Shown piece by piece: positions 1,320 to 47,098 of a stretch of 64,000 bases of DNA. Positions within the stretch are counted from its first letter, which is position 1. Every line of letters begins with the position of its first letter. The notes beneath the pieces are model-generated. The model had not been told where the DNA came from. It saw only the letters and a program-made list of their open reading frames with translations, and did not search any database. The position numbers were made by a program, and so were the translations under genes. This DNA comes from an uncultured candidatus Porisulfidus sp. (GTDB lineage Bacteria > Pseudomonadota > Gammaproteobacteria > Poriferisulfidales > Poriferisulfidaceae). The stretch spans positions 398,415 through 462,414 of the forward strand of contig OZ220480.1 in NCBI GenBank assembly GCA_965116025.1. Reading direction: 5' to 3'.

Positions 1320-4300
1320 TCAGAAGCGAACCTTCAGCAGGACGCTCGCGCCGTAATCGTGATTGTCGCCATCCGACGCCGCGTAGTACGCGTCCGCCGA
1401 GAGCGTCGACTCCCCCTGCGCGTCCAGCGTCATCACGCCCCCGACGCCCAATCGCGCCCACGTCGACTCCACTTCCGAGCGCAGCCGCGCTCCCGACGCC
1501 ATCACCTCCCGGCTCTCCGAGAGATCGCGTTCCAAATCCAGAGAAGCGTACGTCTGGCCATTCTCCAATAACGCCCCGATCCGCGCCCTCACGCTGTCCT
1601 CCGAGCGAAACGACACCCGACCGCTCCCAGTAACCCCCGACACGTCGGCGAAGCCATCAACGTCCACCCAAATCCACGTCAATCCCCCGCGCGGAACCAG
1701 CGCGAAGCCGTCCATCTCCAGTCGCCTGCCAACCTCCACGCCGATCGCGTGACCCTCTCCGTCCAGACCGGACGCCACCATCCCGCGCGCCTCCGAACTC
1801 AAGTCGACGTCCTTGAAACGCGTGTACGAGAACTCCCCGTCCGCGTACCAGCCGTCCTCTCCCCGCCAGGTCGCCGAAGCCCCAACACCAACGCCCGAGA
1901 CCTCGATCTTCCCGCCGCGCGCGACGTCCGCCTCGCCATCACGGTAGTGCGCGCTCACCCCCAGCATAAGCCCCGGCGCGTCCGTGGGAACGACGAAGCC
2001 CGTCTCCACGCCCCAGCGCTCGAAGTCCCAAGACAGCGCGCGACCCGCATCGTCCATCTCGGTCGTGGACATATCCGCCTCCCGCTCGCCGTCGCTCGCC
2101 AACACCCGCGCCCACGCGCGCCCACCATCTCGCGTCGCCGACAAGCGCGCCTGGCGACCGCCCGGAGCGCTCATCTCCAGCAGCACCGACGGCAACGCCT
2201 CGTACACCCGAGCCCGGGCGTGGTACGTCCGACTGATCTCCTTCTCGGAGTCCACCTGGAACTGGTGCCCGCCCGTGATCGACTTCAGCGTGACCATCCG
2301 CTCGAACACCGCGTCGTACACCCCATGCGTCCCCGTCTTCCCCGACGTCGCCTTCACCGCGTCCCCCACGGCTATCGTCTTCGCCATGCCGGCCGTCGAC
2401 TCGCGCTGGAAGACGTTCGGCGTTTTATCGCCACTATTCAGGAATTTCCCCTTGACGAACGCGATCTGCCCATGCGCGTTCTCCTTCAGGGTGACATGCA
2501 GCGCCTTGTCCGCGCTCACCGCGATCCCCGACGTCGCGCCAATCTCCGCCTTCGGCCCGATCACCAGCGTCCCGCCGTTCACCATCCGAACGCCGGCGTG
2601 CTCGCCGGCGCCGCCCATCACCTTGCCGTTGATCGTGACCGTCTGGTCGTATTGCCCTTTCCGGGCGTGGTCGGACGCGAAGGTCCGCATCCCCTTGACA
2701 TGCACCCCGTCCTTCTTGGCCCGGATCGTCGCCATCTCCCCCACCGTGACCGTGATCTTCCCGGCCGTGGGCGCTTCCATTTCCGTGTAGGCAGTGGCGG
2801 TCTCCGCGTAGACTCCGTATCCATCAGCCATGATCACACCGCCCGACACATCGATCATGATTGGGATGATCATCTTTCGAGCGTCACCATCATCCGAATC
2901 GTCCAGGTCTTTCACGTAGGCCAGAATGCCGTCGCCCCTCGACATGATGTCCGCCTTCGACATGATCTTGATCTCCCCGATCTCGGTGGTGTAGGTCTCG
3001 GGGTTCCCCTCATCGAGCTCCTTGCCGGGAAGTGGCTGGGACTCCGCGCCCCCATGGATGGCGAGAATGCCGGCGGTCCGATCCTTCAGGTCCGCCAGCT
3101 TCGTCTGGTGATCCGCCGAGAGCGAGGAGGAGGAGAATACGTCGGACAGGTCGCCCGCGGTGATCTTCCCCGCCAAATGCTTCACGTCCACCTCGCCCCA
3201 ACCGGTATGCAACGCGAAGACCCCGGAGCCTTTCGCGTGGATGAGGCCCTCGTTGGTAATCATGACGGGGATCTCGTTGTCCGAGGATATGGTCTCGGCG
3301 AACACGCCATGCCCGCCGACTGGAGCGCCGGCGGTCCCGATCCGCGCTCCCTCGGAGACGGTCACCCGAATCGTTCCCCCGTGGGTCTGGTGGAGGGCGT
3401 ACACGCCATGTCGACCCACGGTCGGCTCGTCTCCTTCCATACCGATCCGCGCCCCCGACTTCAGCGTCACCTCAATGTCTCGGTTGATGTCGCCGCGCTG
3501 GCTGTCGTCGTGCGTCGTGCCCCGGTAAACGTAGATCCCGTCCCCGCCAGTTCCCGTCGAAGCGATCTCGCCCGCGAGATCCACCTTGACCAGACCACCG
3601 TTGTGGCCAGCGGAATTAACGTAAATTCCGTCTCCCACGATCTCCGTGTTCCGCCCGCCCGCCGTGATGACGCCCCCCGTCACGTCGACCGTCACCGGAA
3701 CCACGGAATCGGAGTCCCCTTGCGTAGTGACGGAGATGCCATAAGTGCGGGCCCAAATATCTCCGCTCGAGGTGATCATGATCGTGCCGCTAGGAACCTC
3801 GGCGGCGCCCATGGTCGTGTCCCTATGATCAACGGTTATACCATTTTCGTGGATAAACGCGTTATCGGCTAAATCCAGCGTGGCCTCATCGCCCGAGAGC
3901 GTTCGCGGGTAGAGAGGCCATTGCCTCTTGCTGACAAGCGTCCCGTGGTTCGTGACGGTGATGTCGCCCCCCTTGAAGAGGTTGACTAGAATGCCCTTGC
4001 TGGTCACGCTGCCCTTCGCCGTCTCGATGGCGACGTCTCCAGACCCCTCGTTGTACACGTAGATTCCTCGGTAATATCCGTAAATCTCGCCCCGGTTCAT
4101 GATCGAGACGTCGCCCTCGGCGGACGCGTTTCTGTAATACGCGAACACCCCATAAAGCCCCACCGGAATCTCCTCAGTGCCGATCCGCGCCTCGGCCCCG
4201 ACCGTGATCTCGATCTTGTCCGCCCTGTTGGTTTTGGAGGCTTTCTTGTTCCAGACGGTGATCCCGTAGTTCCTGTTGCCCCGCTGATACTGGGGATCAA

Positions 4301-4834
4301 TGAACGTCCCACTGAGCCGCTGGCCATTCTCCGTGTACATGGCCGTGGTGGGCGGAGTCCAACCGCCCGCCTCGTTCACGATCCTCACCTTGCCTTCCAG
4401 ATTCACCGTCAGCGCCCCGTCGCCGACCACCGCGACCCCGGGATTCCGGCCTTGGGTGGGACTGTCGGCAGAAGTGGGAGTATTGCGAGGAAGGAACGAC
4501 TTGATGGTCGTCATCTCCCCGGAAGGCTTCACGGTCAGCGTCAAGCCGCCTGTCTGACCCGTGTACTCGATAGGATTGGGAGTGGCGCTGGTGCCGCCGT
4601 AGGTCGAGGCGGCGCAGGTGACCGTTTTGGTGGCGCCGACATCGCCGCACTGGTTCGCCTTGGCGGAATGCGGAATCAGTGGGATCGAGAGAGCGGCCGT
4701 CAGCCCGGCCAGAGCGATCAGGAAACGAGGGCTATGCCCCCCCCCCCCCCCCCCCCCCCCCCTACGCGGGAAGACGACGAGGCGACGCGACGCGCGGCGC
4801 GCACGGTATCAGAAAAATGCGGGTTGACTCTCAT
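1320..4834 (-). CDS. autotransporter (type Va) copy 1: repetitive beta-helix passenger plus C-terminal beta-barrel; reading frame interrupted at a poly-G tract in this assembly
   Basis: The ORF track gives 1320..4544 (TTG start), and the C terminus ...DYGASVLLKVRF has a terminal aromatic residue, which is typical of an autotransporter barrel. The frame stays open upstream of 4544 and encodes a classical signal peptide, HSPRFLIALAGLTAALSIPLIPHSA/KA, but has no start codon. An ATG at 4834 with an SD-like AGGA opens a leader MRVNPHFSDTVRAARRVASSSSRV that runs into 26 G (4762..4737). This leader is 1 nt out of frame with the signal peptide. Confidence 0.8.
4737..4762 (-). repeat. homopolymeric tract, 26 G on the coding strand (C on the plus strand), inside the 5' coding region of autotransporter 1
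   Basis: Counted directly as plus-strand C 4737..4762. With 26 G the ATG frame terminates as ...RVGGGGGGGGGIALVS*. With 27 or 24 G the leader fuses in frame to the signal peptide. Confidence 0.9.
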
Positions 4835-4870
4835 TGAGAAATCCTGATGGCGATGAATGATTGGAGCGGA

Positions 4871-5209
4871 TTATACCCAAAACCCACGCGCCCAAAAATC
4901 CTCACCGGATGGCCAGAGACCGATTCCATCCGAGCAGATCAGGTTTTCGAGGGCATGATTTGGCCCGTACTCTCTAAAGATCGGGACTTCCCACGCTTGC
5001 CCGGGTCGCGCCTCGTCAATCGCTGTTCGGATATCTTCAATCTTATGCCGCGCCCATGCCATGCCGTAGCCATCAGCACGATGATTTCCACCCTTCTTCC
5101 AGCCAAATTTCGCTGATACCGTATATTTTTCCGTGGCCACTATGACCTGATACTCGCCGTCTTCGGCTTTTTGCATCAGCTCCCCATTCTCAAGCGATTC
5201 CCAACCCAT
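4871..5209 (-). CDS. hypothetical protein (112 aa) directly upstream of, and co-oriented with, autotransporter 1; lower GC (about 52%)
   Basis: The ORF has protein-like composition. It ends 36 bp before the autotransporter ATG. I recognise no family. Its GC is clearly below the surrounding DNA. Confidence 0.5.
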   Translation of the reverse strand: MGWESLENGELMQKAEDGEYQVIVATEKYTVSAKFGWKKGGNHRADGYGMAWARHKIEDIRTAIDEARPGQAWEVPIFREYGPNHALENLICSDGIGLWPSGEDFWARGFWV

Positions 5210-15703: not shown

Positions 15704-18700
15704 TCAGAAGCGAACCTTCAGCAGGACGCTCGCGCCGTAATCGTGATTGTCGCCGTCCGACGCCGCGTAGTGAGCGTCACCCGATAGCGTCGACTCCCCT
15801 TGCGCGTCCAAGACCATCACGCCCCCGCTGCCCAAACGCGCCCACGTGGACTCCACCTCCGAGCGCAGCCGCGACCCCGAAGCCATCACGTCCCGGCTCT
15901 CCGACAGCTCGCGCTCCACGTCCAATGAGGCGTACGTCTCGCCGTTCTCCAACAGTACCCCGATACGCGCCCGCGCGCTGTCCTCCGAGCGAAACGACAC
16001 CCGACCGCTTCCAGCAACGCCCGAAACGTCGGCGAAGTCGTCGACATCCACCCATGTCCACGTCAATCCTCCGCGCGGGATCAGCGCGAAGCCGTCCATC
16101 TCCATGCGCCTGCCGACCTCCACGCCGACCGCGTGACCCTCTCCGTCCAGACCGGACGCCACCATCCCCCGAGTCTCCGAGCTCAGGTCGACATCCTCGA
16201 AACGCGTGTACGAGAGCTCCCCGTCCGCGTACCAGCCGTCCTCCCCCCGCCAAGTCGCCGATGCCCCGACGCCCACGCCCGAGACCTCGATCTTCCCGCC
16301 CCGCGCGACGTCCGCCTCGCCGTCGCGGTAGTGCGCGCTCACGCCCAGCATCAGCCCCGGCGCGTCCGTAGGAACGACGATGCCCGTCTCCACGCCCCAG
16401 CGCTCGAAATCCCAAGACAGCGCGCGACCCGCATCGTCCATCTCGGTCGTGGATGTCTCCACCTCCCGCTCGCCGTCGCTCGCCAACACCCGCGCCCACG
16501 CGCCCCCGCCGTCCCGCGTCGCCGACAAACGCGCCTGACGACCGCCCGGCGCGCTCATCTCCAGCAGCACCGACGGCAGCGCCTCGTACACCCGAGCCCG
16601 GGCATGGTACGTCCGGCTGATCTCCTTCTCGGAGTCCACCTGGAACTGATGCCCGCCCGTGATCGACCTCAGCGTGACCATCCGCTCGAACACCGCGTCG
16701 TACACCCCATGCGTCCCCGTCTTCCCCGACGTCGCCTTCACCGCGTCCCCCACGGCGATCATCTTCTTCGCGCCGGCCATCAACTCCCGCTGGAAGACGT
16801 TCGGCGCGTCCTTTCCACTGTTCAGGAATTTCCCCATGACGAAAGCGATCTGCCCATGCTCGTTCTCCTTCAGGGTGACATGCAGCGCCTTGTCCGCGCT
16901 CACCGCGATCCCCGACGTCGCGCCGATCTCCGCCTTCGGCCCGATCATCAGCGTCCCGCCGTTCACCATCCGAACGCCGGCGTGCTCGCCGCCGCCGCCC
17001 ATCACCTTGCCGTTGATGGTGACCGTCTGGTCGTAGTGCCCCGCCCGGGTAGCGTGATCTTCCGCGAAGGTCCGCATGCCCTTGACATGCACCCCGTCCT
17101 TCTTGGCCCGGATCGTCGCCATCTCCCCTACCGTGACGCTGATCTTCCCGGCTTTCGGCGCGTCCTCGTCCTCGTAGGTGGTGGCCGTCTCCGCGTGCAC
17201 GCCATGCCCGTCCGCCATGATCGTTCCGCCAGCCACGTCGATCTTGATCGGGACGATCATCTCGATGTCCTGTACCCCCTCCGCGTCGTTCAAGTCTTTC
17301 ACATAGGCGAGAATGCCGTCGCCCTTCGACGTGACGCTCCCTTTCGACGTGATCTCGATCTTCCCGATCTTGGCCTCGTAGGTGGAGGGGGCTTGAGAGT
17401 CGACCGCCGTCTCGTCGGAAGCCGCCTGGGGCCGCGAACTCCCATGAACGGCGAGGATGCCGGCGGTCCTGCCTTTCAGGTCCGCCAATTCCATCTTTTC
17501 AGACTCCGTTATGGAATCCACGTCACTGTCCAAGATATCGAGCGCGTCGCCCGCGACGATCTCGCCCTTCAAGTGCTTCGCGACCACGTCGCCCCAGCCG
17601 CGATGCAGAGCGGCCACCCCCGAGCCCTTCGCGTGGATGAAGCCTTCGTTGGTGACCGTGATATCAGTCTCGTCAGTAGAATTGACCACATTAGTGAACA
17701 CGCCGTGTCCGCCAACCGGAGTCCCCGCGGTCCCGATCATCGCTCCCTCGGATACCGTCACCCGGATCGCTCCCCCGTAGATTTGCTGCTGGACGAGCAC
17801 GCCATGCCGACCCACGGTCGGCTCGTCTCCCTCCACGCCGATCCGCGCCCCGGACTTCAGCGTCACCTCAATGCCGCTGGGTTTCACGACGGCCGCCGGT
17901 TTGGTCGGTCGGAACCGATACGCATGGATGCCATCGCCACCTTCGCCAGCTGTGCCCGTCCGGGTGATCGCGCCCGCCAGATCCACCTTGACGAGACCCC
18001 CGTTATGCTCATGATGAATTTTGATCCCGTGGCCGTTCAATCCGCCCCCCATGAGGCTCCCTCCCGTCACGTTGATCGTGACCGGAACCACGGAATCGTC
18101 GTCCCCTTTCGTCGTGACTCGAATGCCTTCCGTCCACCAATAGGGCGCGACGCCCGGGTCCGTCACGACCTCGATGTCGCCGCTCGACGTGATCGAGACC
18201 TCGCTGCTGGCCTGCCCGTCCGCGGCCGGAGCGCTCTTGTCCTCGTGAAACACGTGAATCCCGGCGCGCGCGTACGCGCTTCGAGTTTCCACATGCCCGC
18301 TCTCCGTCGGATTCGCCATTTTCAGATAGCGGAGCGGATGGCTCTGAACCACGATCTTGCCCTCATGGACGATCGTGATGTCACCGCCGCCAGAAGACGA
18401 GCCCGGGGCTATCCAAACATCCCTAAGCCAGCGCTCTTCCAGACCCTCGTCCTGGAGATTCCCCGCCGACGCCCGGATCCCTTGCGAGGTCACGCTATTC
18501 TTCGCCGTCTTGATCACGGTGTCGCCCCCGCCCGAGCGATGCGCCAGTATCCCGGCATACGTCCCGTAAATCTCGCCCGCGTTCGTCACGCTGATGTCCG
18601 TGTCATGCTGAAAGTACGCTAGAACGCCGTACCCGCCCATCGGTTTGTCCTCGGTTCCGATCCGCGCCTCGTCTCCCACCATCACCTCGGCGCGGTCCTT

Positions 18701-19296
18701 CTGAGCGTCGGCGTCGCTTCCCAAGTGCTTCACGTAGACGCCGTGGTTGAGCCCCGCCCCGCGGTCCCTCGAATCAATGGCCTTCCCGATGCGCGTGACC
18801 GTCGTGGACAGCCCCGTCACGAGCCTCCGGGTCGCCCCGCTCTCAATGCGGACCCGCCCATCGAGAACGACTTTCTTCAGGGCGCCGGGCCCGCTCAGGA
18901 CGATCCCCGGCCGAGCGTCGCTCGCGCCACTGGGTATTCCACTGGACGTGATGGTGACCGTGCCCGCCCCGGAAGGCTGGACCGTCAGCGTCACGCTCCG
19001 GCCTGGCGCGGCGAGATCGTATCCGATCGGCGGGCCGTCGGCCTTGGTGTAGGTCGGGTCGTCGCAAGTGACTTCGGCGGCGCCCGAGCCGCTGGGAAGG
19101 TCGCCGCAGTTTCCCGTGTCCGCCGCCATGGCGGAGTGCGGAATCAGCGGAATGGAGAGAACGGCCGTCAATCCGGCCAGAACGGTCAGGAAACGGAGGC
19201 TATGCCCCCCCCCCCCCCCCCCCCCCCTACGCGGGAAGACGACGAGGCGACGCGAAACGCGGCGCGAATCTCGGAAACGGACAGGTTCTTGGTCAT
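15704..19296 (-). CDS. autotransporter (type Va) copy 2, paralogue of 1320..4834; reading frame interrupted at a poly-G tract in this assembly
   Basis: The ORF track gives 15704..19171 (TTG start inside the signal peptide, ...LTVLAGLTAVLSIPLIPHSAMA). Its C terminus ...LLKVRF is about 93% identical to copy 1 over roughly the last 600 aa. An ATG at 19296 opens the leader MTKNLSVSEIRAAFRVASSSSRV, followed by 23 G (19227..19205), and is 1 nt out of frame (ORF 19186..19371 in the track). Confidence 0.8.
19205..19227 (-). repeat. homopolymeric tract, 23 G on the coding strand, inside the 5' coding region of autotransporter 2
   Basis: Plus-strand C run 19205..19227. The count is consistent with the track ORF 19186..19371, which encodes ...RVGGGGGGGGIASVS*. 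24 or 21 G would restore the frame. Confidence 0.85.
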
Positions 19297-19409
19297 TATT
19301 CGTCCCTTTTCAAGGATCAATCTCGGATGGCCGCGCATTATACCCCCAGCGCCCGCGCGCTTCCAAACCAAAATAATCGCGCCGAATCGCCACCGCCGAG
19401 CGCGCCCTG

Positions 19410-19446: not shown

Positions 19447-19522
19447 GGCCAGGTAGCTCAGTCGGTAGAGCAGGGGACTGAAAATCCCCGTGTCGGCGGT
19501 TCGATTCCGTCCCTGGCCACCA
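19447..19522 (+). tRNA. tRNA-Phe (GAA)
   Basis: A 76-nt cloverleaf GGCCAGGTAGCTCAGTCGGTAGAGCAGGGGACTGAAAATCCCC...TGGCCACCA, with anticodon loop CT-GAA-AA and an encoded CCA end. Confidence 0.95.
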
Positions 19523-42454: not shown

Positions 42455-42708
42455 AAGATTATATTCTGAATGCGCTCGCGCAAATTCAAAACGGCTATTC
42501 TCAATGTGGAATCGCTGATCGTATAGTCTCGTGTTCATCCACTTGGTTTGGACGCGAAAGCATGTCCGAACGCATCAAGTCCTGGTTGAAAGAAAACTCT
42601 AGTGACGCGCGGCGACTTTCATCACGACCCTCACTCAGGTCCAAGAAGGCCATGATGCGAACGCCGATCAAGGAAGCGGATATCTGCCATTTATCTGGGC
42701 AGCCGTAA
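42451..42708 (+). CDS. 85-aa ORF that exactly bridges the MTase stop and the Res-like start
   Basis: Its ATG overlaps the upstream TGA (ATGA), and its TAA overlaps the downstream ATG (TAATG). It has low complexity and no recognisable fold. Confidence 0.35.
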   Translation: MKDYILNALAQIQNGYSQCGIADRIVSCSSTWFGRESMSERIKSWLKENSSDARRLSSRPSLRSKKAMMRTPIKEADICHLSGQP

Positions 42709-45344
42709 TGTACGGTTTGACCCTGTTCCGGGACTTAAAAGAAGCCACCATCTCGTGGCGCGAAAATGGCTACCCTTGCGAGGACCACCCCTACATCAGC
42801 TTCATTCTTTCGCACCAAACCAGAGATGCGCGAGAAACCCTCAAGGAGGACGAGGCCATTGAGTTGAAGTACCTGCGCGAGCCGCAGTTTCTAGCCCTGG
42901 AGATTTATTGGTATGTTCGATTGATCCTGAAAACCCCCAAGATCGTGGATTTGTACAAGCATTTTTACGGGAACGACAAAAGCGAATTCTTCGACGCCAT
43001 CGGACTCCCCTTGTCGCCAGACGCCTTCGACTACGCTACCATTGACCAGGTCATGGAAAAGGTCAAGCATGACCAGGAGTTCGTGAAAAGAAAAAGAGCG
43101 GACGCGCTACATGAATCAATTCGCCTGGAATATCCGAGCTACATTCTGGCCTTGGCTATGGGAGCGGGAAAGACCGTTCTGATCGGAACGATAATCTCGA
43201 CGGAATTCGCTATGTCGATCCGGTATCCTGACAGCGAAATCAAATTCATGAGAAACGCCCTCGTCTTCGCCCCGGGCACGACCATCATCGAAAGCCTGCG
43301 AGAGCTCAGCGACTTGGCATACGAAGAGATATTGCCGCCGGACGCACGGCGAGACTTTCTCGCGAACCTGAAAATCGAATACCCTGGAAAGGGAAAGGAT
43401 ATCCAAATCCAGGCCGGTAGCTCCTACAACTTGATCGTCACCAATACCGAGAAGATCAGCCTGCGGGCCAAAACGAGAAAGAATCGGACGGATTTCGAAC
43501 GCGACCAAGTGCTCGCGAATCTTCGGCTCCAGAAAATCGCGAGCCTGCCAAATCTCGGAGTGTTCTCGGATGAGGCGCACCACACTTTCGGAAACGCTTT
43601 CGAGAAAATCAAGAGAGTTCGAGAAACCATCGATTACATCAATGACCATGGCGCGCCGATCGTGGCGGTCGTGAACACGACCGGGACCCCGTACTACAAA
43701 AAGAAACCGCTAGTAGAAGTGATCGCATGGTATGGACTCGGAGAGGGAATCAAGGACAACATCCTCAAGTCTCTGACGAATGGAATCCACCGGTATGACA
43801 TGAGAAACGAGCCCGAAGAGACCGTGATCAACGATATCGTGCGCGAATTCTTCAAGACCTACGGGGACGTGACTCTTCCCGACGGTGCCAAAGCGAAGAT
43901 CGCCTTTTACTTCAAGACGCAAGAGCATTTGGAAACGTCCAAGAATTTTATCGAGAAGGCGATGACGGAAATCGGGGAAAGCGTCTCCCAAATACTGGTC
44001 AACACGCAGAAATCTGACAGCTGGCAGCTGGACGCCTTCCGGCGCCTCAATGACCCTGGTAGCCTAATGCGGGTGATTCTTCTTATTGGGAAGGGGGTCG
44101 AGGGCTGGAATTGCCCCAGCCTGTTCGCCTGCGCCCTGATCAAGCCGCAAACCAGCAAGACCTATGTGCTGCAGGCTTCCACGCGGTGCTTGCGGCAAGT
44201 ACCCGGAAATTCGCTCCCGGCGAAGATCTTTTTGGATCACCAGAACTCCGGCATCCTCAATCAGCAACTCCGGGACAGTTTCTCCACTGACCTGACAGAC
44301 CTTATGCTTGGAGCGAGCCAGAAGAAACACGTCGTCTTGCGCATCAGGAAGCCCGATCTACCAAAACTAGAAATCACCAGGAAAGTCAGAAAAGCCGTAA
44401 GAACACGCGAATCAAGCGCGCCCATCCATCTGGCGAGACCGAAATCCAAAGCTCCTCCCACGGTGCTTCGAAACATATTGACCCCCGCGTTCAGCAGCTC
44501 GTTCGATTTGCTCATGCCCACCGGCGAGACGAAAAAACTTGTCGTGGCGGAAAAATCCACGGATCGCTACACCGTCGCCAGAAGAATCGCTTCCAGATAC
44601 CATCTCCCCCTTCTGCAAGTCCTGCAAAGCTTGAGAAAACTCTATCCCAAGGGAACGATTCCGAATGGTCACCTGTATGGACTGCATAAGCAGGCCGAGC
44701 GGCAACAAGCGAACTATGAAATCGTTGAGGAGGATGTGACCGAGGTGATGGCGCTGATCCGGATTCAGGACGAGAACGGCAACAATTTATTCGAGACGGA
44801 AGCGGACGACGATGGCGGTAGCGTTTACGTTCACCGGCTACGCATGTTGCGGCGCACTTATGAAAGAATGGAGCAGCTCGACCTTTTTCAGGATGCGGCG
44901 ACATGCGCGGATCGTCACGACCTGAGCTATCACTACGTCCCGTACAATTTCGATAGCGGGCCGGAAAGCTCTTTGTTCAAGCAGACCCTGTCCGCGCTCA
45001 ACGCCGACCCTCGCGATGTCGAAGCTTTTCTTTTTACCGGGGGCCTGACGAATCCGAGCATGACCGACTTTCACTTTGAGTACATGGGGGAAAACGGGCA
45101 ATACCACCGCTACTTCCCTGATTTCGTGGTGGTCAAAAAGAAAACCCGGGAGTTTTACGTCGTCGAGGTCAAGTCTGAGCGCGATCGCGAAAACCCTACC
45201 GTTGAAGCGAAGAAAAAGGCTGTGGAACGATTGCGGAACATGCAGCCAGAGAAGTTCAAGTATCACATCGTCTACACTGGCGAGGGAGAGGTTCCACCTA
45301 ACGAGATTCAACATATTCTGGACTGGGCAGAATCACGGCGATGA
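42708..45344 (+). CDS. Type III restriction Res-like SF2 helicase with a C-terminal PD-(D/E)xK nuclease (878 aa)
   Basis: It has Walker A LAMGAGKT, DEAH box FSDEAHH, motif III TGTPYY, motif VI QASTRCLR, and a C-terminal YFPDFVVV...EFYVVEVKSE nuclease motif. Confidence 0.75.
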   Translation: MYGLTLFRDLKEATISWRENGYPCEDHPYISFILSHQTRDARETLKEDEAIELKYLREPQFLALEIYWYVRLILKTPKIVDLYKHFYGNDKSEFFDAIGLPLSPDAFDYATIDQVMEKVKHDQEFVKRKRADALHESIRLEYPSYILALAMGAGKTVLIGTIISTEFAMSIRYPDSEIKFMRNALVFAPGTTIIESLRELSDLAYEEILPPDARRDFLANLKIEYPGKGKDIQIQAGSSYNLIVTNTEKISLRAKTRKNRTDFERDQVLANLRLQKIASLPNLGVFSDEAHHTFGNAFEKIKRVRETIDYINDHGAPIVAVVNTTGTPYYKKKPLVEVIAWYGLGEGIKDNILKSLTNGIHRYDMRNEPEETVINDIVREFFKTYGDVTLPDGAKAKIAFYFKTQEHLETSKNFIEKAMTEIGESVSQILVNTQKSDSWQLDAFRRLNDPGSLMRVILLIGKGVEGWNCPSLFACALIKPQTSKTYVLQASTRCLRQVPGNSLPAKIFLDHQNSGILNQQLRDSFSTDLTDLMLGASQKKHVVLRIRKPDLPKLEITRKVRKAVRTRESSAPIHLARPKSKAPPTVLRNILTPAFSSSFDLLMPTGETKKLVVAEKSTDRYTVARRIASRYHLPLLQVLQSLRKLYPKGTIPNGHLYGLHKQAERQQANYEIVEEDVTEVMALIRIQDENGNNLFETEADDDGGSVYVHRLRMLRRTYERMEQLDLFQDAATCADRHDLSYHYVPYNFDSGPESSLFKQTLSALNADPRDVEAFLFTGGLTNPSMTDFHFEYMGENGQYHRYFPDFVVVKKKTREFYVVEVKSERDRENPTVEAKKKAVERLRNMQPEKFKYHIVYTGEGEVPPNEIQHILDWAESRR

Positions 45345-47098
45345 GCGAGAAAGCGATCAAGATACGGCCTATCAAAGGGCGCGCCATGCTTTCCTGGGTC
45401 GGAAAAAAGGTCTTGGATTCCGTTCGGTATTTTCCTCCTCAACTATGCGAAAGCGTCGGAGTGAAGACCCCACCCGCCGAACCTTCTTACAAAGAGTTTG
45501 AGCGTGGGGGATTCAATCTGCTTTTTCACGGAGACAACAAGGAGACGCTATCCTCTCTCATCAACCTTGGATTCCGGGCAAAAGTCGACTTGATCTACAT
45601 CGATCCTCCCTTCGATTCTGGCGCTGACTACGTCAGGAAAATCAAACTGCGTGGCACGAAGCGCGTTTATAGCGGAAAACTTGACGGAGCGGAACACACG
45701 GCGATAGAGCAGGCGCAGTACGAGGACATCTGGGCGAACGACAACTACCTTCAGTTCATGTACGAGCGCTTGATTTTGATGCGAGAGTTGCTGAGCGATC
45801 AAGGAAGCATCTATCTGCATTGCGACGAGCACAAGGGACATCAATTGCGTCTTTTGCTGGACGAGGTTTTTGGAGAGGAAAACTTCAAGCGGGAAATCGT
45901 CTGGGACATAACGGTTCTATCCGGCTTCAAGACAAAGGCCCGCAACTGGATTCGCGGACATGACACGATCCTTTTCTACACGAAAGGCCAGAGCCAGAAA
46001 TGGAATTCCCCCAGGATTCCGCACGATCAGAAATACTTGGCTCGTTTTGACCAGATAGATGAGGATGGCCGAAGGTATTTCGGGGGCAGAGGCCCGCGCC
46101 GATATCTGGATGAAGTCAAATCGAGGGGCAAGGCGGTCGGAGACGTATGGTCGGACATTATGTCCTTTCAGCAACAACCAACTTCCACGGAAAATGGGCA
46201 ATATCCCACGCAAAAGCCAGAGAAGCTGTTAGAGCGAATCATTCAAGCGTCCAGCGACGAGGGATCCATAGTTTTGGATTGCTTCTGCGGCTCCGGGACG
46301 ACGGCCGCCGTGGCGGAAAAACTTAATCGCCGCTGGATCATGGCGGATCTCAACAAGGGCGCCATCCAAACCACCGTCAAAAGACTGCAGAAGGCGCATG
46401 CGGAAAATGAGGGCGGCAAGTTGATTCATTACCGCGTCAACAACTATGACGCCACGAAGCAAAACGCTCTAAAGAAAGTCATTATCGCGAAATACGGCAT
46501 CCAGTCAGATCGCAAGGATCTGTTTTTTGATGGCACGGTGGGCGGGCAACTGGCCAAGATCGTGGAGCTGGACAAGCCATTGACCGTTTTGGATATCCAA
46601 AACATCAAAGAGGAAATTCGGAGCAATAGGCCAGAGGACACTCGGAACGTGGTCGTTTTCTGCAACGGGTCAGAAATAGAAACGCTGGAAGCTCTGGAAA
46701 AAGAGAAAAGCCCAATTAACCGGATCGTCGCTCTCGATATTCAGCGAGACTCGGTGTTCACGAATCAACCCGCGGAAGCGGAAGTTGAGGTACGCAAAGC
46801 CGGGAAGCGCGTCCAAATTGAAATCTCGGACTACATCAGCCCGACCATCCTCGCTCGATTGGACGTTGACCGAACACTGCTTGATGAGCAAATAGACGAT
46901 TTTCGAGCGCAAATCGATTATGTGCTGATCGACACGGATTACCGCGAAGAATATTTCCAAATAATGGAAAGCGATGTGCCACGCGCGAAGAGCGATTTGA
47001 TTAAAGGCGCATATGACCTGCCTCTGCCTCGAGCCAACGCGACCGTGGCCGTGAAAATCGTGGATATGGTCGGAGAGGAAGTCCTAGTCGTGAAATAG
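45341..47098 (+). CDS. Type III Mod-like beta-class N6-adenine DNA methyltransferase (585 aa)
   Basis: Motif IV DPPF (LIYIDPPFDSGADY) precedes motif I FCGSGTT (beta-class order). Its start overlaps the Res stop (ATGA). Confidence 0.75.
   Translation: MSEKAIKIRPIKGRAMLSWVGKKVLDSVRYFPPQLCESVGVKTPPAEPSYKEFERGGFNLLFHGDNKETLSSLINLGFRAKVDLIYIDPPFDSGADYVRKIKLRGTKRVYSGKLDGAEHTAIEQAQYEDIWANDNYLQFMYERLILMRELLSDQGSIYLHCDEHKGHQLRLLLDEVFGEENFKREIVWDITVLSGFKTKARNWIRGHDTILFYTKGQSQKWNSPRIPHDQKYLARFDQIDEDGRRYFGGRGPRRYLDEVKSRGKAVGDVWSDIMSFQQQPTSTENGQYPTQKPEKLLERIIQASSDEGSIVLDCFCGSGTTAAVAEKLNRRWIMADLNKGAIQTTVKRLQKAHAENEGGKLIHYRVNNYDATKQNALKKVIIAKYGIQSDRKDLFFDGTVGGQLAKIVELDKPLTVLDIQNIKEEIRSNRPEDTRNVVVFCNGSEIETLEALEKEKSPINRIVALDIQRDSVFTNQPAEAEVEVRKAGKRVQIEISDYISPTILARLDVDRTLLDEQIDDFRAQIDYVLIDTDYREEYFQIMESDVPRAKSDLIKGAYDLPLPRANATVAVKIVDMVGEEVLVVK

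Follow-up and report, generated by a model that had tools for sequence, protein, structure and literature searches.

A poly-G tract of 26 nucleotides (nt) separates a short leader open reading frame (ORF) from the start-less signal-peptide coding region of a large autotransporter gene (autotransporter 1, AT1), and this tract probably acts as a hypermutable simple-sequence repeat that gates AT1 translation by slipped-strand mispairing. The locus lies in the window, by which we mean the whole 64,000-nt stretch of DNA that was analyzed and to which all positions refer unless a locus is named. Comparison supports such a switch, in that tract length and reading frame vary among paralogues and relatives whose flanks are nearly the same. 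An earlier note on this DNA had raised a slipped-strand ON/OFF switch as a candidate, and the proposal has since gained support from a second copy in the window with a 23-nt tract (AT2), from 23 paralogues in the source genome, from the mixture of lengths and frames among relatives, from a relative that lacks the tract and from purifying selection. Slippage at the AT1 tract itself, its rate, its reversibility and its benefit to the organism are what we infer from these sequence comparisons.

In the proposed mechanism, ribosomes would start at the ATG at position 4834, the sole available start codon, and translate the 24 leader codons up to and into the G run, beyond which a Sec signal peptide and a 1138-codon autotransporter would follow without a start of their own. 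Run lengths that are multiples of three (24 or 27) would yield a linker of eight or nine glycines, and the in-frame precursor, consisting of leader, Gly(n), signal peptide, passenger and barrel, would then be made, exported and displayed. Any other run length would lead to termination within 1–7 codons of the run and to no exportable protein. Slipped-strand mispairing at replication would add or remove G residues, giving random and reversible ON/OFF states in each cell lineage, and each paralogue would be switched independently by its own run. Since the same gate stands before at least 23 paralogues with differing passengers and conserved barrels, a population should show shifting combinations of surface proteins. 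The G residues are always on the sense strand, so that in-frame runs encode a flexible glycine linker that joins the leader to the n-region of the signal peptide; length changes in steps of three should be tolerated at this position. Slippage of RNA polymerase or of the ribosome at tracts of 20–26 nt could blur a clean ON/OFF outcome.

The tract and the 5′ anatomy of AT1

A homopolymer scan placed 26 consecutive C residues on the plus strand at 4737–4762, exactly as the earlier note had described, corresponding to G26 on the coding (minus) strand; this is the length as assembled, and the call for so long a homopolymer may be off by one, in which case the true modal length could be 27. In the 64-kb window (63.4% G+C), the only homopolymers longer than 8 nt are this C26 and a C23 at 19205–19227, which belongs to AT2. 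Independent base composition predicts ~3e-8 runs of at least 26 C residues for a 64-kb sequence.

On the minus strand, the elements occur in the following order: TATAAT, AGGA, ATG, 24 leader codons, G26 and CAT AGC CCT CGT TTC CTG. The TATAAT (4870–4875, minus strand) is a −10-like hexamer, identified by consensus match only; it is conserved with AT2 as part of GGGTATAAT, and no good −35 element is present upstream of it in AT1. The AGGA (4842–4845, minus strand), a putative Shine–Dalgarno-like motif identified by reading the sequence, lies 7 nt upstream of the leader ATG (4834–4832). From this ATG, the leader ORF (4763–4834, minus strand) runs for 24 codons (MRVNPHFSDTVRAARRVASSSSRV) into the tract.

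The assembled tract leaves this leader out of frame with the autotransporter. The ATG frame continues through eight GGG codons and a GGC, formed by the last two G residues and C4736, into an out-of-frame tail (GGC ATA GCC CTC GTT TCC TGA; 4718–4736, minus strand) that encodes GIALVS and stops at 4720–4718, producing a 38-aa abortive peptide of the length given in the earlier note. The remaining wrong frame meets an immediate stop downstream of the tract (GCA TAG). The long frame, which is one base back from the ATG frame, is open from 4763 as far as a stop at 1320 and has 1138 codons downstream of the tract. The claim that 27 or 24 G residues would fuse the two frames agrees with the frame arithmetic, the leader and autotransporter being joined via Gly9 or Gly8. 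The placement of the repeat sets the frame: tract lengths divisible by three are in frame, and other lengths stop within 1–7 codons.

Directly downstream of the tract is a start-less signal-peptide coding region (4662–4736, minus strand; HSPRFLIALAGLTAALSIPLIPHSA, with predicted cleavage before KA), in which a charged n-region, a hydrophobic core and an A-x-A-like end were judged by eye and which, as assembled, is joined to no start codon. Going downstream from the preceding stop, the first canonical start in this frame is a TTG at 4544, which is codon 64 counted from the tract. The earlier note had stated that the frame has no start of its own before a TTG deep inside the signal peptide; the first part stands, but the TTG lies ~39 codons past the predicted cleavage site. 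A product begun at this codon, in the mature passenger, would be without the whole signal peptide, which strengthens the point that the signal peptide is start-less. A hidden signal-peptide start codon was rejected as a candidate for both copies: AT1 has none before codon 64, and a TTG at codon 11 of AT2, which falls within the hydrophobic core, would give a truncated signal without an n-region. A role for mRNA structure around the tract was likewise dropped, as the predicted fold of the 5′ region was no better than that of shuffled sequences (z = +2.1).

The AT1 coding frame (1320–4736, minus strand; 1138 codons plus stop) was characterized by Pfam search, structure prediction and structural comparison. 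It matches the autotransporter beta-domain (PF03797, E = 1.6e-25) at residues 891–1106. An AlphaFold model, built from a 24-sequence family alignment (mean pLDDT 77), contains a disordered segment (residues 1–27), short repeated beta-strands (residues ~38–800, pLDDT mostly 80–97), a linker helix (840–856) and a 12-strand-type barrel (873–1137). The best Foldseek matches in the PDB were the translocators of EstA, EspP, AIDA-I, BrkA, Hbp and NalP (E = 6e-8 to 6e-6), and the passenger had no Pfam or PDB sequence match. With a C-terminal 12-stranded barrel (PF03797) and a helical linker after a beta-rich passenger, which in this class is usually a beta-helix, AT1 is, by its modeled fold, a classical (type Va) autotransporter whose passenger lacks a family match. 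The leader recalls the extended signal peptide region (ESPR, PF13018) in being an N-terminal extension of ~25 residues ahead of a classical signal peptide, but ESPR is without a glycine run or repeat. A Pfam scan of four in-frame leaders for PF13018 (E ≤ 10) returned no match, and an ESPR-type extended signal peptide was ruled out on this basis.

AT2 and the paralogue family of the source genome

Exactly two family members, AT1 and AT2, were found within the window by tblastn. The AT2 coding frame (15704–19204, minus strand; 1166 codons plus stop) is 65% identical to AT1, and its tract (G23; 19205–19227, minus strand) occupies the same position as that of AT1 and is one G short of the in-frame length of 24. 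The AT2 leader ORF (19228–19296, minus strand) begins at an ATG at 19296–19294 and comprises 23 codons (MTKNLSVSEIRAAFRVASSSSRV); a promoter-like site, TTGGAA-18-TATAAT (19337–19366, minus strand; consensus match only), lies upstream of it. The sequence after G23 begins with CATAGCC and encodes HSLRFLTVLAGLTAVLSIPLIPHSA followed by MA, and wrong-frame stops occur here as well (19186–19204; GCA TAG, and TCC TGA after six codons). A divergent tRNA-Phe gene (19447–19522, plus strand) is located just upstream of AT2.

Upstream homology between the two copies begins at the TATAAT-containing element noted above. The 28 nt before the tract, which form the 3′ end of each leader, and the 7 nt after it (CATAGCC) are identical in AT1 and AT2, while the passengers are only 65% identical and dS just past the signal peptide is about 0.5. 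Identical tract flanks beside this level of downstream divergence imply that the 5′ cassette is either strongly constrained or homogenized among copies.

Although AT1 and AT2 are both out of frame as assembled, their dN/dS ratios (Nei–Gojobori method, AT1 versus AT2) were 0.13 for the barrel, 0.45 for residues 641–840 and 0.49 for the variable passenger. These values indicate that the out-of-frame copies are under purifying selection, which would require expression that is at least intermittent. They also bear on whether the out-of-frame copies might be decaying pseudogenes, that is, dead members of an expanded family. While the consensus sequence does show the majority of copies out of frame, each copy carries one lesion only, which is located at the tract in all cases, and the frames of 1138 and 1166 codons are otherwise intact; the chance of such an open frame is ~1e-14 at ~0.028 stops per random codon, as estimated for this composition. 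Together with the barrel ratio of 0.13 between two out-of-frame copies and the retention of the leader ORF, its ATG and its Shine–Dalgarno-like motif in every copy, this makes decay a very improbable account of the family.

A protein search identified 23 paralogues (60–100% identity), all on one contig of 2,018,984 bp, and at ~3.4 kb per copy the family makes up ~4% of this 2.02-Mb contig. The leader was called in frame in four of the 23 paralogues: P0005 (Gly8), P0020 (Gly7), P0022 (Gly7) and P0019 (Arg plus Gly5). P0008 was called in a shifted frame, for which homology implies G20, one short of in-frame. P0017 begins with MSRFLTVLAG, the very start of the signal peptide, and may have its own start codon, and the other paralogues were called from internal starts, so that the signal peptide is missing from them wholly or in part. 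Tract lengths in this genome were 26 and 23 nt from DNA and 24, 21, 21, ~20 and ~17 nt as inferred from proteins. Overall, public gene calls are shifted or internal in 19 of the 23 paralogues (P0001–P0023), which are annotated wrongly as N-terminally truncated or shifted because gene callers cannot bridge the tract.

Sequence identity is distributed unevenly along the protein. Among 18 same-genome paralogues, mean pairwise identity was 0.39–0.61 over passenger residues 80–640, 0.81–0.88 over residues 641–720 and 0.84–0.95 over the linker and barrel (residues 841–1120), a profile that has the pattern expected of a variable exposed domain on a conserved anchor. We found no second assembly or strain of the source organism by protein search, which returned the source contig alone, in GTDB representative genomes, from which the source genome is absent, or in JGI metagenomes, where neither a DNA pattern nor a protein query gave a match. 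P0001, P0020 and the 112-aa ORF upstream had no record in exact look-ups, and nothing scored against an N-terminal 115-aa protein query.

Tract lengths in relatives and alternative explanations

Closer relatives (~50% identity) were found in two ENA metagenome assemblies, in ERZ25068685 on contigs of 1.05 and 1.07 Mb and in ERZ24894574 on one of 3.0 Mb. These relatives and those from GTDB genomes described below have a junction in common that consists of a short ATG leader with a Shine–Dalgarno-like motif, a G run and a start-less signal peptide. Six copies taken from ERZ25068685 had tracts of G19–G25: two were in frame (L001, G25; L026, G19) and four were not, with L025 (G25) and L029 (G23) one G short and L028 (G25) and L030 (G22) one G long. 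The copy from ERZ24894574 (L027, G20) was one G short. The two closest long-tract genomes keep the wrong-frame stops at every one of their eight loci (AT1, AT2, L001, L025, L026 and L028–L030). The leader of L028 (L028:1300–1365) is 2 nt shorter than that of L025, the difference falling within a (CG)n-like run (GCCGCGCGCGCGGGCG), so that this dinucleotide run and G25 together determine the frame of L028. Near L001, an intergenic C29 (L001:2900–2928; G29 on the other strand) lies about 72 nt from the autotransporter ATG and is flanked on its other side by a divergent 186-aa gene, after which comes a UbiB-like (ABC1) gene. This autotransporter may thus have a homopolymer at the promoter level as well as the G25 in its coding sequence.

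A scan of GTDB representatives recovered 20 paralogues (34–46% identity) in a Paracoccaceae metagenome-assembled genome (MAG; OZ220486.1) and single copies in one Gammaproteobacteria MAG and one Candidatus Poriferihabitaceae MAG, the last of these families being named in a sponge genome note with associated metagenomes (PMC12859430). In OZ220486.1, the junction carries G9–G14 in 17 of the 20 loci, and an 18th (L013, G10) has its tract further upstream. Among copies with the leader MGYSEQSGY and near-identical flanks, L012 (G9) and L009 (G12) are ON, and L003 and L010 (both G10) and L017 and L022 (both G11) are OFF; a pair with another common leader consists of L007 (G10), which is ON, versus L021 (G11), which is OFF. 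About four of the 18 copies are ON, and the OFF states are divided 6:6 between +1 and −1. In L002, a family member that lacks the tract, the ATG, a long leader and the signal peptide are all in one frame.

Two Paracoccaceae paralogues have tracts ahead of their own ATG: a C19 ~15 nt before it in one (L014:2624–2642) and a G13 1 nt before it in the other (L018:2798–2810). Some members therefore carry the tract in the 5′ untranslated or ribosome-binding region, not in a coding leader. The flanks of Paracoccaceae loci also contain G/C runs of 11–16 nt (L005:995–1006, L014:7436–7446 and L015:974–986, 1071–1081 and 2486–2501), two of which are inside a repeated sequence (...KPLFRQGGGG...), which suggests that further loci of this genome bear homopolymers. 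Searched with a profile, a set of 1.84 billion representative proteins yielded 1502 relatives; in the best 150 of these, seven of 147 new relatives combined a leader, a glycine run of at least four and a signal peptide.

The same data can be used to weigh an assembly miscall, according to which the true AT1 tract would be 27 (or 24) G and the gene would be in frame and steadily expressed with a poly-glycine linker. AT1, AT2, L025, L029, L027 and, by protein inference, P0008 are all one G short, accounting for six of the eight OFF copies in the long-tract genomes, an excess that is compatible with a mild under-call bias. The contig names of the relatives (ctg6866_22x_l type) suggest long-read metagenome assemblies at 22–24x, a source of data also indicated by PMC12859430. 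However, other copies with tracts of similar length come out in frame in these assemblies (G25 and G19; inferred G24, G21 and G21), L028 and L030 are called one G too long, and ~19 of the 23 copies in the source genome would all need to be wrong. The Paracoccaceae tracts, which at G9–G14 are easily called, display the same ON/OFF mix with +1 and −1 states balanced 6:6, and C8 runs within housekeeping ORFs of the window are without frameshifts. We consider a miscall unlikely on balance, though it carries more weight than the other alternatives. Even a run of 27 G is hypermutable, so that a miscall would alter the current state of AT1 and not the mechanism.

The excess of −1 states among long tracts is also a point in favor of recoding, in which RNA polymerase slippage, or a ribosomal −1 or +1 shift on G GGG GGG, would restore the frame in a fraction of products. 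In a variant of this explanation, tract length would set a low level of expression, acting as a dial rather than a switch. Identical GGG codons permit perfect tRNA re-pairing in either shifted frame, and long homopolymers are known sites of RNA polymerase slippage; in bacteria, transcriptional slippage is best documented on A/T runs and not on G/C runs, which counts against recoding here. Poly(A) tracts in Buchnera give rise to heterogeneous mRNAs, according to work cited in a passage of PMC2831843. Both wrong frames stop within 1–7 codons, leaving little room for late ribosomal shifts, and no stimulatory RNA structure is evident, the 5′ fold being at z = +2.1 relative to shuffles. Recoding does not account for the DNA length differences among paralogues, although it can coexist with DNA slippage, and as the explanation of the gate we judge it improbable. 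The idea that copies are always one G short, as would follow from programmed recoding or systematic under-calling, was set aside: it was true of the first five OFF copies and was weakened by L028, L030 and the balanced Paracoccaceae set.

Comparison with known switches and wider implications

Slipped-strand switching of AT1, as we propose it, resembles several established systems. One is Neisseria pilC, in which a homo-G tract in the signal-peptide coding region undergoes frameshifts that lead to RecA-independent ON/OFF switching (PMC5354566). As in AT1, the poly-G lies within the N-terminal leader or signal-peptide coding region of a surface-protein gene, but PilC is a pilus tip protein with two copies, in contrast to an autotransporter with 23, and the G26 of AT1 separates a distinct leader ORF from a start-less signal peptide. 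Tracts in pilC are roughly 10–15 G long. The Neisseria opa genes, up to 12 in number, have CTCTT repeats in the leader-peptide region and are switched independently, so that none to several variants are shown (PMC5354566). They share with the present family a multigene outer-membrane repertoire with conserved and hypervariable parts and a repeat in the leader-peptide coding region, whereas the repeat is a pentamer and the products are 8-strand barrels, compared with a homopolymer and autotransporters here, and the present family has about double the number of members, the genomes being of comparable size.

Phase-variable autotransporters are also established, including NalP and MspA of N. meningitidis, with homopolymeric tracts in the coding sequence (PMC3723659), and Lav of H. 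influenzae, with GCAA(n) in the coding sequence (PMC9022572). All three are type Va autotransporters switched by simple-sequence repeats in the coding sequence; unlike the present family, they are single genes of pathogens with shorter tracts, and they have no detectable sequence relationship to it beyond the barrel fold. Most of what is known of the contingency strategy comes from pathogens of human mucosae (Neisseria, Haemophilus, Campylobacter and Bordetella), and known bacterial switch tracts are usually 8–15 nt long. In the source genome, by comparison, tracts span 17–26 nt, and in relatives they reach 25 nt in coding position. General surveys have found poly(G)/poly(C) tracts to be under-represented in prokaryotic genes (PMC2831843).

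Literature searches found no poly-G-gated autotransporter families in sponge-associated or other symbionts. The mechanism is a textbook one, and the novelty lies in the family of proteins, in how long the tracts are, in how large the repertoire is and in the occurrence in uncultured, animal-associated lineages. A wider reading, which we put forward tentatively and as somewhat less probable than its negation, joins three elements: a set of random switches that spans the genome (at least 23 gates on ~4% of a 2-Mb genome, with tracts of 17–26 nt), a general surface-coat strategy of symbionts and a per-generation randomizer or dial. In its first part, coding homopolymers of 17–26 nt would be far longer than usual in known switches. 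In its second, conservation of the gate in sponge-metagenome relatives, including the Paracoccaceae lineage (~20 copies), would extend stochastic surface-coat variation beyond the classical pathogens. In its third, switching might be so fast, and RNA slippage so likely, that the tract would serve as a randomizer or dial and not as a heritable switch.

If the proposed switch is real, the family would be an extensive and clear-cut case of contingency loci in a small-genome bacterium that is uncultured and has relatives in sponge microbiomes. About 4% of the genome would be spent on one surface-protein family, each copy behind its own random switch, and the strategy would extend from mucosal pathogens to animal-associated symbionts. 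It would also imply that the cell surface is under strong and fluctuating selection, which host phagocytosis or recognition, or else phages, might impose. The wrong annotation of 19 of the 23 copies further implies that homopolymer lengths in long-read MAGs carry biological information, which polishing may erase.

Apart from the two autotransporters, the window contains ordinary housekeeping genes of proteobacterial type, with a few additional features. A 390-aa ORF at 34436–35608 (minus strand) matches RTX-type calcium-binding repeat proteins (NF033943, E = 2e-44) and may be another secreted or surface protein. Two adjacent ORFs at 42708–47098 (plus strand), one of 878 aa that weakly matches the BPTD_3080-family restriction endonuclease and one of 585 aa for an adenine-specific DNA methyltransferase, look like a restriction-modification pair. 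Lastly, four tRNA genes (Lys-CTT, His-GTG, Arg-TCT and Pro-TGG) are clustered at 29406–29764 (minus strand).
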